A stretch of DNA of 64,000 nucleotides from an uncultured Gammaproteobacteria bacterium. GTDB lineage: Bacteria > Patescibacteriota > Patescibacteriia > CAYZDG01. The notes beneath the pieces are model-generated. The model worked only from the letters and a program-made list of their open reading frames with translations. It made no database searches and was not told where the DNA came from. The first letter of the stretch is position 1. Each line of letters starts with the position of its first letter. Made by a program: the position numbers and the translations under genes. Where the stretch lies: contig CAZHXI010000003.1 in NCBI GenBank assembly GCA_964536515.1, forward strand, positions 9,112 through 73,111, written 5' to 3'. Below are positions 24,253 to 27,635 of this stretch, piece after piece.

Positions 24253-24277
24253 TGACACACCCTGGGGGCGTGTCAAC
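24253..24277. promoter_or_regulatory. Inverted repeat TGACAC-N11-GTGTCA between the ATPase gene and surface-protein gene 2 (operator-like; overlaps a TTGACA -35-like hexamer on the minus strand)
   Basis: Read directly. Confidence 0.35.
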
Positions 24278-26042
24278 CGTTGAAATCGACCTCAGCGCCT
24301 GCTTCTAAATCACCCGACGACTGCTGCGGCTTGGGCGGAATGATGGTTCGGCCTGTGAACGTGGTGATGGGTTTCTGCAGAGCCTCGGCTAGAGATACGG
24401 GGGCTGGCGCCGGTGCGGCGGGCTGGGGTGGAGCGGTGAACCTAGCCGCAGGCTCGACACGTGGGCGCTGGACCGGAGCAGCCTGCTCCCCCGCCACGGC
24501 AGCTCCCGGGGCTGGGGTAGCTGAGACAGCGGCTGGCTGCCGTCGCTTCTGCGGCGCCGCTATCTTGCCGGCGCGGAACAGCCGTAGGCAGTCGGGGCAG
24601 AACACGGGCCGGTTGGGATCTGGCGGGAAGGGCGTGGTCGTAGGCTTGCCGCAGGCGTCGCACACCGCCTCGAAGCGCGGCCCCTCTGGCACCCGCGGCT
24701 CCCGACGCGACGGCCCCGCCGCGGCTTCCTCGGCAGACTTCTGCAGCGCCTGCTCGCTCCACTTGATAATCTTCTCCTCCACCTGCTCGCGGGGCGTGGC
24801 GTAGCGCTCGCGGCTGACCTTGATGACCGTATCCAGTACGCCGGGCGCCTCCTCCAGCTTGAACGGCGGCAGCGACGTGGCCGAGAACGGCTGCGACGTT
24901 ACCCCGTCGATCATCAGCTTCAGGTACATGTTGAAGTTCGGGAGGTTCACCAGGTCCTGCGGCAGGAAGGTGGGCTCGAACTCCGTCTTCAGGAACTCGG
25001 CGTCCTCGGCGCCCACGCGGAAGATGGCCATGGTGCCGACGTTGCCGAACACGGCGTCGCGGATGGTGGTGCTGCCGCCGGGAACCAGCTGGCCGACGTA
25101 CTGGTGGCCCAGCGTCAGGCACAGCCGGTACTTGCGAGCCTCGGAGAGGATGCCGGCGAAGCTCTCGGTCACGAAGTTCTGGAACTCATCTACGTACAGG
25201 TAGAAATCGTTGCGCTCCCCCTCATCTACGTTGACGCGGCTCATGGCGGCCAGCTGCAGCTTGGTGATGAGCATTGCCCCCAGCAGCGCCGAGGCGTCCT
25301 CGCCGATGCGTCCCTTGGACAGGTTCATGAGCAGGATCTTCTTGCCGTCCATTACCTGGCGCAGGTCGATGCTGCTGCGCACCTGGCCGATGATGTTGCG
25401 CACGAGGGCCATGGAGAGGAACTGGCCGACCTTGTTCTGGATTGGCGCCACCGCCTCGACGGCGAACTGGGCGCTGTACTTGGCGTACTCCACCTCCCAG
25501 AAGGCTTTGACCACCGGGTCGGTAATGGTGCCGATGACCCGCTTGCGGAAGTCGGTATCTACGAACAGGCGCGGCACGCCCAGCAGCGTGCTGCCGGGGT
25601 ACTCCAGCAGCGCCAGGATGGCGTTGCGCAGGATGTACTCCAGCCGCGGCCCCCAGCTGTCTGCCCACAGCTTCTTGAAAACGCCCACGAGTCCGGACGC
25701 TACCAGCGCCTGGTTGGTGCGGTCCACCTGCTCCATGACGTTGAACGCAATGGGGAAGTCTACGTCGTACGGATTGAAGTAGATGGTGTCGTTGATGCGC
25801 TCGGGCGGTATGAACTTCACCACCTTCTCAACCAGGTCGCCGTGCGGGTCGATGACGGCCACGCCGCGGCCGGCGCGAATGTCCTGGATGATCATGTTCT
25901 CCATGAGGGTAGACTTGCCGGTGCCGCTCTTACCCAGGATGTACATGTGCCGGCGGCGGTCGTCGGTCTTAATGCCGAACCTCACCTGCTGGTTGCGGTG
26001 GTTGGTGTAGCCGAAGACGTTTATCTCTGGTCGCTGCTCCAT
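24273..26042 (-). CDS. VirD4/TraG/TrwB-like P-loop ATPase (T4SS coupling-protein-type, soluble, 589 aa) with C-terminal CxxC...CxxC zinc ribbon and Pro/Ala-rich tail
   Basis: Walker A ILGKSGTGKST, Walker B-like FYLYVDEFQNF, TraD/TraG-like C-terminal all-alpha region (RKYRLCLTLGHQY), CDACGK...CPDC. Confidence 0.7.
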   Translation of the reverse strand: MEQRPEINVFGYTNHRNQQVRFGIKTDDRRRHMYILGKSGTGKSTLMENMIIQDIRAGRGVAVIDPHGDLVEKVVKFIPPERINDTIYFNPYDVDFPIAFNVMEQVDRTNQALVASGLVGVFKKLWADSWGPRLEYILRNAILALLEYPGSTLLGVPRLFVDTDFRKRVIGTITDPVVKAFWEVEYAKYSAQFAVEAVAPIQNKVGQFLSMALVRNIIGQVRSSIDLRQVMDGKKILLMNLSKGRIGEDASALLGAMLITKLQLAAMSRVNVDEGERNDFYLYVDEFQNFVTESFAGILSEARKYRLCLTLGHQYVGQLVPGGSTTIRDAVFGNVGTMAIFRVGAEDAEFLKTEFEPTFLPQDLVNLPNFNMYLKLMIDGVTSQPFSATSLPPFKLEEAPGVLDTVIKVSRERYATPREQVEEKIIKWSEQALQKSAEEAAAGPSRREPRVPEGPRFEAVCDACGKPTTTPFPPDPNRPVFCPDCLRLFRAGKIAAPQKRRQPAAVSATPAPGAAVAGEQAAPVQRPRVEPAARFTAPPQPAAPAPAPVSLAEALQKPITTFTGRTIIPPKPQQSSGDLEAGAEVDFNG

Positions 26043-26045
26043 AGG

Positions 26046-27635
26046 TCAGGCGATGGGTAGGTTGGGCGGCGGCGCGCCTCGATCCAGTCCGGATTGATCG
26101 TCGGGGGATGGAGACGCAAAGTATTGCGTCTCTACGTCGGTCCTACCAATGTCTGTAGGAGGAACGGGCTCGCCGCCGGCGGCATCCGCGGGGGACACGG
26201 ATCCCAGCGGCGCCGGCGCCCGGCCCAGCGCCAGCTGCTGCTCGAAGGTCTTGTCGTCTAGGTCCAGCTGCGCCTCGGCCGTAAGCTCCGGCGCCGGCGC
26301 CGCGCCCAGCATGGTACCCGCCGAGGGCGTTACCGATACCAGCCCAGCGGGAGCCTCGCCCTTGCGGGCGCCGGCCCGACGCAGCATGGGGGTCTTAACG
26401 GTTACGAGCGGGAAGTGCCACAGCGTGGCCAGCTCCTCGGTGGAGAGCACCAGCCAGCCAGACCCCTTGAAGTAGCTCCGCTCGCGGTAGGCGTTGAGGA
26501 TCTTGCGGCGACGGTCGGTGATGCGAGAATTCACCCGCCAGTAGTGCACCTCGGTCGAGATCTTGCCGTTGGGACGCAGGGCGTTGAGGTTGGGCGCGGC
26601 CAGGGCGCGCATGGCGCCCCAGAATGCCGGTACGCCCCGCACCTTGTCGTACGCCTCCTTGCGGGCAATGTAGACGTGGCGGATACGGGCCTCGAAGCAG
26701 GTCTTGGACATCTTGTGCTCGATCGCCTTCACGGCGTCCATGCCGCCCGGCGTCATCTGGCCCAGCTTGTTGCCCTTGTCCTTCTTGTCGGCGGGCTTTC
26801 CCTCGGCGCTGGGCAGGACCACGTTGCCGAGCGCGCCGAAGCCCTTCATGCTGCTGGCAACGAACTTGTCGCCGAGGTGCTCCTTCACCGGCGGCTTCTC
26901 GCCGATCAGCTTCTTCAGCACCTTGTTGGCGCTGTGGGTCCACTCGTCGCTGAGCGGCCGAATGACGTACTGGATAGCCAGCATCTCGCCCGGCCCCAGG
27001 CGGCTCATAGCCTCCAGCAGCGGCGCCAGCGGATCCACCAGCCGCTCGTCCGGCACCATGTCGTTCTCGAACGAGGTGTACGTACGGATGGGGTAGGCGT
27101 TGTGCTTGCCGAACTTAGCCTGGGTACCCCAGACCTTGTACGGAGAGTCCAGCTTCCAGGCATCCTGCGGCACCGTAGCCATGTAGTCCTGTACCTCGGC
27201 GATCTCGGCGTCGGGGTACTGGCCGTAGATGGCCGCCTCCACGATGCTGCGGTACTTGACGGGGGTACGCACCAGGTACTGGATGCTGCCCTCCAGGCTG
27301 ACCAGCTCGAAGCTGTAGCCCAGCTGGATCTTGCCCTCCCAGTTCTGCTCCCACTTGGTGCCGGCGCCGAGGATACCCCACAGCGCGGCGAACATCTGCT
27401 CGGCTGCCCTCAGGCTCTGCACGTTCTCACGGGGCACATCCACCGCCAGGCAGACCTGGGCAGTATTCTTGAAGAACTCCAGCTGCTTGCTGTGCCTACG
27501 GTACACGAACCAGGCCGCGCCGAAGAGGATGAGCGTTGGCACCCACCCGCCGTAGATGAAAATTTTCCAGGCTACAACGTACAGCGGCTGGCTGAAGAAC
27601 ACGACTAGCGGCTGCAGGTTGATTACGAAATCCAT
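26046..27635 (-). CDS. Membrane-anchored partner of the VirD4-like ATPase (529 aa; two N-terminal TM helices, large soluble domain, Pro/Ala-rich acidic tail)
   Basis: Stop lies 3 nt upstream of the ATPase start, implying operon and translational coupling. No known domain recognised. Confidence 0.65.
   Translation of the reverse strand: MDFVINLQPLVVFFSQPLYVVAWKIFIYGGWVPTLILFGAAWFVYRRHSKQLEFFKNTAQVCLAVDVPRENVQSLRAAEQMFAALWGILGAGTKWEQNWEGKIQLGYSFELVSLEGSIQYLVRTPVKYRSIVEAAIYGQYPDAEIAEVQDYMATVPQDAWKLDSPYKVWGTQAKFGKHNAYPIRTYTSFENDMVPDERLVDPLAPLLEAMSRLGPGEMLAIQYVIRPLSDEWTHSANKVLKKLIGEKPPVKEHLGDKFVASSMKGFGALGNVVLPSAEGKPADKKDKGNKLGQMTPGGMDAVKAIEHKMSKTCFEARIRHVYIARKEAYDKVRGVPAFWGAMRALAAPNLNALRPNGKISTEVHYWRVNSRITDRRRKILNAYRERSYFKGSGWLVLSTEELATLWHFPLVTVKTPMLRRAGARKGEAPAGLVSVTPSAGTMLGAAPAPELTAEAQLDLDDKTFEQQLALGRAPAPLGSVSPADAAGGEPVPPTDIGRTDVETQYFASPSPDDQSGLDRGAPPPNLPIA

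Follow-up and report, generated by a model that had tools for sequence, protein, structure and literature searches.

Type IV coupling proteins (T4CPs) such as VirD4, TrwB, TraD, TraG and DotL, represented in Pfam by PF10412, PF02534 and PF12696, are ATPases with an N-terminal membrane anchor and a P-loop domain into which an all-alpha domain is inserted. In canonical members, the trans-membrane (TM) domain precedes the nucleotide-binding domain on the same polypeptide. T4CPs and their relatives, which include FtsK, HerA and the archaeal Ced ATPases, pump DNA. Here, we describe a two-gene variation on this plan, found in a stretch of 64,000 nucleotides of a Patescibacteria genome (contig CAZHXI010000003.1, positions 9,112 to 73,111), the whole of which is referred to below as the window. 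One of the genes (positions 24273-26042 of the window, minus strand) is an open reading frame (ORF) for a soluble, VirD4/TrwB-like ATPase of 589 aa that is assigned to the T4CP family by Pfam and fold matches, while the other (ORF at 26046-27635, minus strand) encodes a 529-aa partner belonging to the DUF8128 family (PF26449). As in T4CPs, the module has a P-loop domain with an inserted all-alpha domain and is anchored at the membrane by an N-terminal segment, and the best sequence, profile and fold matches of the ATPase are to TrwB and DotL. Unlike in canonical T4CPs, the anchor is carried by a separate polypeptide, which also brings DUF8128, a domain that canonical T4CPs lack and that occupies ~350 aa between anchor and ATPase in fused homologues. 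The module further differs in having a zinc ribbon in its C-terminal region, in being a chromosomal core gene and in the lack of relaxase or type IV secretion system (T4SS) genes in the 64-kb window.

A large part of bacterial diversity belongs to the Patescibacteria, or candidate phyla radiation (CPR), which rely on host cells for building blocks, nucleotides among them. In a survey of 3,035 of their genomes, 5,713 homologues of VirD4-type T4CPs were counted in 2,918 genomes, with only 148 of the 5,713 lying near virB4 and relaxases being rare, while VirB4 was found in 2,417 genomes (80%); in the words of the authors, exaptation of the T4CPs 'cannot be ruled out' (Quinonero-Coronel et al., 2025, PMC12102498). 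In S. epibionticum, T4SS genes are essential for epibiotic growth and the essential T4SS cluster has no recognisable coupling protein (Wang et al., 2023, PMC10633639). Patescibacteria thus present a T4SS that is essential in the one species tested, without a recognisable coupling protein, alongside a VirD4-like ATPase in ~96% of genomes. These orphan T4CPs, which are rarely near virB4 (PMC12102498) and include SEML1_0293 of S. epibionticum (PMC10633639), appear to be the same family as the ATPase studied here, and SEML1_0293 has the same upstream neighbour. Both papers report a plain T4CP match and describe neither the N-terminal domain, nor split and fused forms, nor synteny; more widely, we found no mention of DUF8128/PF26449, the partner domain, split or fused forms or a conserved synteny in the literature that we searched. 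What was already known is therefore that the family is annotated and counted as T4CP-like and that the N-terminal domain has a DUF number. What is new, relative to that literature, is that the two proteins make up a single unit, its occurrence in split and fused versions and the distribution of these, a possible VirB4-like fold and the synteny with a gene encoding sigma-r4 and HARE-HTH domains.

Two other described systems invite comparison. VirB3-VirB4 (TrwM-TrwK in R388, the fusions of IncX plasmids, TrsC-TrsD-TrsE in pGO1) shows the same order of a small anchor, an N-terminal domain and an ATPase of the FtsK/HerA superfamily, and it also occurs either fused or split across genes, as the module does. 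However, the ATPase half of the module is closer to TrwB, the module lies outside any virB-type cluster, and DUF8128, whose only significant PDB fold neighbours are TrwK/VirB4, has no sequence-profile similarity to VirB4/TrsD. DNA pumps of the HerA/FtsK type, including the Ced ATPases for DNA import in archaea, belong to the same superfamily as the ATPase but score worse than T4CPs, and the ATPase has no HAS-barrel, no NurA partner, none of the alpha/beta/gamma domains of FtsK and no four-TM domain.

The ATPase and its DUF8128 partner

The pair was picked out in a first-pass annotation of the window made from the sequence alone, which proposed that a TraD/TraG/VirD4-like P-loop ATPase and a 529-aa protein, separated by 3 nt, are a coupling protein divided between two genes. 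Both ORFs agree exactly with the coordinates and the gap that were given. The ATPase gene comes second, and the junction reads '...atc gcc tga cct atg gag...'. There are only 36 residues before the Walker A motif and no hydrophobic segment in the ATPase (maximum KD19 1.38), so that hydropathy bears out the proposal of a soluble ATPase whose anchor sits on the upstream protein. No terminators were found in a scan of the 20-32 kb region, in which promoter-like sites were no commoner than in shuffled sequences.

The motifs of the ATPase are strictly conserved. Walker A (GKSGTGKS, residues 37-44; 25911-25934, minus strand), read directly from the sequence, has G37, K38, G40, G42 and K43 invariant in 44 homologues, and the same holds in the Walker B region (YLYVDEFQNF, residues 281-290; 25173-25202, minus strand, from sequence and alignment) for D285, E286, F287, Q288, N289 and F290. 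Between the two lies an all-alpha insertion (residues ~105-232; 25347-25730, minus strand), which corresponds to helices 108-232 of an AlphaFold2 (AF2) model, aligns with residues ~190-330 of TrwB in both phmmer and hhalign and thus matches the all-alpha domain of T4CPs. Further on is a treble-clef zinc ribbon, CxxC-x17-CxxC (residues 456-487; 24582-24677, minus strand), detected by Pfam zf_Tbcl_2 (37.5 bits, cut-off 27) and by TIGR04272 (38.2 bits, cut-off 36), the four cysteines of which (C461, C464, C482 and C485) are invariant in the same 44 homologues. The ribbon had been described as C-terminal, and although its existence is upheld by both models, it does not sit at the extreme C-terminus, since it is followed by ~100 low-complexity residues. 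Overall, the ATPase alignment has more than 100 invariant columns, and identity among the Patescibacteria homologues listed ranges from 72-91% for the closest eight to 54-64% for more distant ones.

Every type of comparison places this protein near T4CPs. TrwB_AAD_bind (PF10412) matches it with 43 bits (cut-off 20.5), TraG-D_C (PF12696) falls short with 19 bits (cut-off 22) but is present in the precomputed annotation of many homologues, and the DUF87/HerA central domain scores 31.9 bits over residues 18-105 only. In PDB sequence searches only TrwB and DotL reach significance, TrwB with an E of 1.7e-5 when the single sequence is used and of 1.2e-7 when a profile is used, DotL with an E of 7e-4. 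An hhalign comparison of the ATPase profile with TrwB gives a probability of 95.6% (E 1.3e-8) over 261 columns, which take in Walker A, the all-alpha domain and Walker B, versus 59.8% with a VirB4 profile and 32% with TrsK from Gram-positives. The AF2 model (predicted local distance difference test, pLDDT, 76) finds in Foldseek DotL (4.8e-9), TrwB (2e-6), Cag-beta (4e-6), HerA (6e-6) and the C-terminal domain of VirB4 (1.3e-4), in that order, while the FtsK-type TcpA is non-significant (E ~0.5). FtsK families are absent from the Pfam/NCBIfam, PDB sequence and Foldseek matches, and family scans also return a weak match to CedD at the level of the P-loop. Judged by its sequence profile and modelled fold, the ATPase is a relative of coupling proteins of the VirD4/TrwB/TraD type and groups neither with FtsK/SpoIIIE nor with an unrelated AAA family, as the first reading had it.

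The partner is more than the supplier of the TM helices that the ATPase is missing, which was the whole role originally assigned to it, because it adds a conserved domain of ~350 aa, predicted to be cytoplasmic. It has no match in our local copy of Pfam, which does not contain the PF26449 model; the DUF8128 assignment comes from the precomputed annotation of an identical database protein and of most homologues. A search of 1.84 billion representatives yields 3,545 representative relatives at E<=0.001. The AF2 model has a pLDDT of 83 and a predicted TM-score of 0.74, and the protein falls into four parts. The N-terminal anchor (residues ~8-47; 27495-27614, minus strand), identified by hydropathy and by AF2 helices 8-15 and 18-57, is a single hydrophobic stretch broken by a conserved GGW at residues 29-31, of which only residues 20-43 pass KD 1.6; it may form a single membrane helix or two. 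The membrane anchor of the first description stands, and its two helices are plausible, not proven. The basic sequence YRRHSK comes after the anchor and, by the positive-inside rule, the globular domain is most likely cytoplasmic. This alpha/beta domain (residues ~58-410; 26406-27464, minus strand), delimited by alignment and AF2 and ending in EELATLWHFP, has pLDDT values mostly above 90 and contains 28 of the 29 columns that are invariant over the whole protein in 57 homologues, the last one being P429. Finally, after a disordered linker of ~110 aa, the protein ends in the conserved peptide PPPNLPIA (26049-26072, minus strand), a PPxNLP motif in which P523, L526 and P527 are conserved at >=90%.

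The fold of DUF8128 offers a lead as to its ancestry. When the model was compared with the PDB using Foldseek, the top 14 matches were all TrwK/VirB4 chains of R388 (E 2e-5 to 9e-3), the next match having an E of 0.1; these matches have TM-scores of only ~0.3 and may involve either half of VirB4. Comparisons of profiles gave a different picture: hhalign of DUF8128 against TrwK, pGO1 TrsD/TrsE and a 12-sequence VirB4/VirB3-VirB4 profile returned probabilities <1%, a Pfam scan of 57 members at E<=10 had no match, and a PDB profile search was also negative. A sequence-level homology of DUF8128 to VirB4/TrsD is therefore rejected, all profile tests (hhalign, Pfam and PDB profile) being negative, and because every sequence-based test failed we keep a possible VirB4-like scaffold, suggested by the modelled structure and by the domain architecture, as a lead and not as an established homology. 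The idea that DUF8128 is a degenerate copy of the ATPase was likewise discarded, since hhalign of the two families was negative.

A Patescibacteria-wide module in split and fused forms

The window pair is the fission form of a Patescibacteria-wide protein composed of an anchor, DUF8128 and a T4CP-type ATPase. We read it as a gene fission because single-ORF DUF8128-ATPase fusions occur in many other Patescibacteria lineages and the split forms make up essentially one clade. The cut between the two genes falls exactly at a domain boundary of a protein of ~900 aa, and the halves are translationally coupled.

The conservation of the pair was assessed in 80 species-representative genomes with DUF8128, 68 loci of which had enough DNA for adjacency of the ATPase to be scored. 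The ATPase gene is directly downstream of DUF8128, on the same strand, in 49/68, and of the 55 paired loci, 32 have genes that overlap or lie <=10 nt apart. The pairing, which recurs in 49/68 related genomes and exists as a fused ORF elsewhere, thus exceeds chance, and the proposal that the two genes are halves of one unit is borne out by adjacency in 72% of related species-level genomes as well as by the fusions. In three loci that were entered from the ATPase, DUF8128 is upstream in two. In the third (L100), an 80-aa coiled-coil protein with a single TM segment (5755-5997, plus strand) is encoded 3 nt before the ATPase and may be an alternative membrane anchor for it; the neighbourhood of that locus is ftsA-ftsZ-nrdR-nrdD-nrdG ... 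divIC-ftsE-ftsX.

Fusions came to light in metagenomes. There were none among the best 150 matches of the representative search, all of which are stand-alone DUF8128 proteins of <=691 aa. An independent sample comprised 120 metagenome contigs, retrieved with a DNA pattern that encodes the invariant motif DEFQNFxTxSF, so that similarity to the query played no part in their ranking, and searched with hidden Markov models built from the DUF8128 and ATPase alignments. Of the ATPase ORFs found, 49 are fused to DUF8128 and a further 17 lie next to a separate DUF8128 gene; another 22 stand alone or are fragments, and 35 are truncated by the end of a contig. In the fused ORFs (median stop-to-stop length 916 aa), positions ~20-435 of the DUF8128 profile are separated from the ATPase profile by ~0 residues, so that DUF8128 lies between anchor and ATPase, and 29 of 36 fused proteins have a hydrophobic N-terminus. 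Since the DUF8128 core runs straight into the ATPase, there is no room for a PPxNLP tail in these proteins.

A neighbour-joining tree was built from 148 ATPase domains. Only two changes between fused and split are required on it, nearest neighbours agree in 114 of 119 cases, and the split forms, the window included, are essentially one clade. Which of the two states is ancestral can be proposed only tentatively because the tree is crude and midpoint-rooted. The zinc ribbon follows the same division, being present in 51/70 ATPases of the split clade versus 0/36 fused homologues, while the PPxNLP tail goes with pairing (50/55 paired loci versus 10/19 unpaired; Fisher p = 8e-4). Tail and ribbon are not a compensating pair within the split clade, where they are uncorrelated (46/15/5/4, Fisher p = 0.24). 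A DUF8128 subfamily (L019, L031, L032, L033, L038, L046 and L067) has an acidic '...(D/E)x(x)FG' C-terminus in place of PPxNLP, and its genes come directly after secF, with neither the sigma-r4/HARE-HTH gene nor an adjacent ATPase. One metagenome contig (L211) encodes tandem fused paralogues (217-2734 and 3263-6140, plus strand), one of which groups inside the otherwise split clade; this arrangement fits the published figures, by which a Patescibacteria genome has about two T4CP homologues.

The module belongs to the core genome and lies outside any conjugative element or T4SS cluster. The window (GC content ~64%) is Patescibacteria core chromosome, with genes for SecA, SecD, SecF, DnaK/DnaJ/GrpE/HrcA, FtsW, DnaE, RpoA, tRNA synthetases, a polysaccharide cluster and an enzyme of the AMP-phosphorylase type. 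A Pfam scan of its ~45 larger ORFs found no relaxase, VirB4, VirB6, VirB8 or VirB11, a result that divergent CPR versions could escape but that agrees with the initial remark that no relaxase, VirB4 or other T4SS genes are nearby. All named homologues of both proteins are from Patescibacteria, including Falkow-, Komeili-, Uhr-, Magasanik-, Kerfeld-, Buchanan-, Jackson- and Nomurabacteria and the Parcubacteria group. Many Patescibacteria-like contigs are titled 'uncultured Gammaproteobacteria bacterium' (TPA_asm binchicken/SRP) and one 'Candidatus Binatia'; these titles look like placeholder or wrong taxonomic labels and not like DUF8128 outside Patescibacteria.

A gene for a protein with Sigma70_r4 and HARE-HTH domains (27698-28819, minus strand, by Pfam; ~373 aa from its ATG, the mechanical ORF starting at 28867) precedes DUF8128 in the window, and such a gene is immediately upstream in 44/71 loci and upstream of 7/34 fused genes. 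This DNA-binding protein, which is enriched in Patescibacteria, may be functionally linked to the ATPase or merely syntenic. Next comes secD-secF (28928-31486, minus strand), named from the Pfam domains (SecD_SecF_C, Sec_GG and SecD_1st) that are annotated at this locus and at its orthologues: the window translations find their orthologues by tblastn, and the Pfam identity is taken from the annotated loci. SecF lies <=6 kb upstream of the module in 40/62 split-clade loci versus 0/34 fused loci.

A genetically accessible version of the module may exist in S. epibionticum. SEML1_0293 is a protein of 921 aa with TrwB_AAD_bind at residues 402-719, was non-essential in transposon sequencing at all time points, and lies directly downstream of SEML1_0294, an essential gene annotated 'RpoS' with Sigma70_r4 and HARE-HTH domains (PMC10633639). 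Its size, the offset of 376 residues and the gene position fit the fused architecture, and it is the apparent fused counterpart of the window pair, its DUF8128 part being deduced from these same three features. If so, the function of the module would be accessory rather than essential, and SEML1_0293 would be a deletion target in a genetically tractable species. The window pair itself offers a defined two-part complex for structural work.

A probable membrane-held motor and competing explanations

The reading that we favour, and which we regard as probable, is that the pair results from fission of an anchor-DUF8128-ATPase protein and acts as a membrane-held motor feeding a polymer into a conduit encoded elsewhere. 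DUF8128 would sit in the membrane, its globular domain facing the cytoplasm, and hold the soluble ATPase there, taking the place that the N-terminal domain of VirB4 has relative to the VirB4 ATPase domain, so that anchor and scaffold would be analogous to VirB3 plus that N-terminal domain. The ATPase would assemble as a ring, like TrwB/VirD4, and use ATP to engage a polymeric substrate, most likely DNA or nucleoprotein, and to drive or gate its passage through a non-local membrane conduit, for which the best candidates would be the chromosomal T4SS of Patescibacteria, with its clusters devoid of a coupling protein, or ComEC. In the split form, the disordered tail that ends in PPxNLP may serve as a tether replacing the covalent link lost between DUF8128 and the ATPase, and the clade-specific zinc ribbon may add nucleic-acid or partner binding. 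Several observations weigh against this proposal. Roughly one DUF8128 gene in four lacks an ATPase gene beside it (the genes found downstream of them, which include a glycosyltransferase, DUF4012, primase and Dus, are unrelated), and some ATPases have no adjacent DUF8128; the likeness of DUF8128 to VirB4 comes from Foldseek, with TM-scores of ~0.3, and failed in all sequence-profile tests; and substrate and conduit are conjectural, no DNA-processing or channel gene being linked to the module. In addition, the T4SS of S. epibionticum is essential and its T4CP-like gene is not (PMC10633639), which disfavours an obligatory role as the coupling protein of that machinery.

A possible alternative, to which we give appreciable but clearly lesser credence, is that the chromosomal T4SS of Patescibacteria has its genuine coupling protein in this module, at a distance from the virB4 cluster, and that the module serves contact-dependent transfer to or from the host bacterium. 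DUF8128 would then dock the motor on VirB4, VirB3 or VirB6, and the ATPase would recruit effector proteins or DNA. Membership of the ATPase in the T4CP family, the Foldseek resemblance of DUF8128 to VirB4, the lack of a recognisable coupling protein in Patescibacteria T4SS clusters, t4cp genes often being far from virB4, and the presence of VirB4 in 80% of genomes are all consistent with it. However, SEML1_0293 is non-essential where T4SS genes are essential for epibiotic growth, T4CP homologues occur in ~500 more genomes than VirB4 with only 148/5,713 near virB4, and no T4SS gene was found in the window; because SEML1_0293 is dispensable and T4CPs are more widespread than VirB4, we lean slightly against an obligatory T4SS role. 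Rather doubtful, although it and the preceding alternative are our two leading sub-hypotheses, is a nucleic-acid translocase independent of any T4SS, for example a motor for uptake through ComEC that replaces ComFA and delivers DNA to recombination or nucleotide salvage. DNA pumping is what the relatives in the superfamily do, the ATPase has a zinc ribbon, and a DNA-binding protein is encoded at the conserved position upstream. In S. epibionticum, ComEC and a protein like ComFC are present but no protein is annotated as ComFA or ComEA (checked by name, in one annotation table), and both ComEC and SEML1_0293 are non-essential. Salvage genes are also found directly downstream of the ATPase in several genomes, where it is followed by genes for IF-2B, RuBisCO and AMP phosphorylase (L003, 11286-15621; L002, 11346-13780), while elsewhere unrelated genes follow; AMP phosphorylase, IF-2B (ribose-1,5-bisphosphate isomerase-like) and the RuBisCO large subunit look like the archaeal-type AMP salvage pathway. 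Against this stand the lack of direct support for any substrate, the occurrence of the AMP-pathway synteny in only ~8/55 paired loci, the lack of a zinc ribbon in fused homologues, and the fact that the absence of ComFA is by name only in the annotation of a single genome. A bolder version, which we consider unlikely, would make the module a third and hitherto unrecognised branch of the VirB4/VirD4 family, with a VirB4-like scaffold and a VirD4-like motor, working as a minimal T4SS-independent membrane DNA translocase of ultra-small bacteria. If true, this protein may sit close to the common ancestor of VirB4 and VirD4 and may drive DNA uptake by ComEC in place of ComFA, supplying nucleotides to bacteria that do not make them; in any case, the anchor-DUF8128-ATPase unit may shed light on the divergence of VirB4 and VirD4.

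Two remaining explanations are much weaker. An ATPase for anti-phage defence or genome maintenance (of the HerA, DndH or MADS mad8 type), or a substitute for FtsK in chromosome segregation, is improbable. It would account for the PADLOC matches to mad8 (E 1.3e-12), DndH and HerA, which are at the domain level only, for the DUF87/HerA score and the HerA structures among the Foldseek matches, and for the homologue in the ftsA-ftsZ-nrd-ftsEX neighbourhood. Nevertheless, T4CP structures and profiles outscore HerA, no nuclease, methylase or NurA partner is present and no effector gene is adjacent, and defence islands do not look like this: the gene is part of the core genome, its synteny is stable, and even distant homologues within the phylum are 54-64% identical. 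We rejected a defence system, the PADLOC matches being confined to domains and the context being housekeeping, and also an FtsK substitute, S. epibionticum having a canonical essential FtsK (SEML1_0096) and a dispensable SEML1_0293. Least probable of all is an apparatus dedicated to exporting or presenting the two adhesin-like proteins encoded next to the module, which the first-pass annotation had suggested and which we now consider very unlikely. Those genes are adjacent and on the same strand in the window and in its closest relative, but this adjacency is absent from 79/80 other loci, they are an insert between the ATPase gene and the otherwise adjacent AMP phosphorylase gene, and both proteins have Sec signal peptides, with secA and secDF in the same block. 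A dedicated exporter is unsupported because the surface genes are a lineage-specific insert whose products have Sec signal peptides, and with it a supposed link between ATPase and adhesins that was a misleading lead is removed. In the reading as a membrane-held motor, the surface proteins are ordinary Sec substrates, unrelated to the module.

Surface proteins and other features of the window

The two surface proteins (20511-24177, minus strand; outside the module) have 622 and 558 aa and were characterised by Pfam and pairwise comparison, which shows 38% identity over ~400 aa (E 2e-62). They are indeed paralogues of roughly 600 aa, as first noted, but calling them giant was an overstatement. 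Pfam finds Big_9, cadherin-like and CHB_HEX_C domains in them, and their Sec-type signal peptides have hydrophobic segments at residues 7-33 and 7-35. The paralogues also have in common a C-terminal module of ~150 aa with repeated 'WYV.P..G.RY' motifs and no Pfam match. Such genes are downstream of the ATPase only in the closest relative (L102, 91% ATPase identity) and are absent from that position in 79/80 related loci, with a single weak match upstream. They are followed by a gene for a CAP-domain membrane protein with a Pro/Ala-rich linker (19081-20391, minus strand) and then by the gene of the AMP-phosphorylase type (17557-19050, minus strand), recognised by its Glycos_trans_3N, Glycos_transf_3 and PYNP_C domains. 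The adhesin-like and CAP-domain genes are thus inserted between ATPase and AMP phosphorylase genes, and the surface-protein block appears to be a lineage-specific insert common to the window and L102 only.

Further away, a tightly packed three-gene operon (37933-41481, plus strand) encodes proteins of 368, 194 and 617 aa with no Pfam match and no P-loop, two of which are membrane proteins with low-complexity regions rich in Thr, Ala and Pro. It is followed by a segment (42001-44000) with a GC content of 0.53, versus ~0.64 elsewhere, which contains small hydrophobic ORFs (42244-43093) and an ORF at 43386-43928 with a GC3 of 0.44, and which may be a small acquired or variable region. At the other end of the window, a surface-polysaccharide cluster (12-8517, minus strand) encodes three GT2 and two GT4 glycosyltransferases, a Wzy-like O-antigen ligase/polymerase and a Wzx-type flippase.

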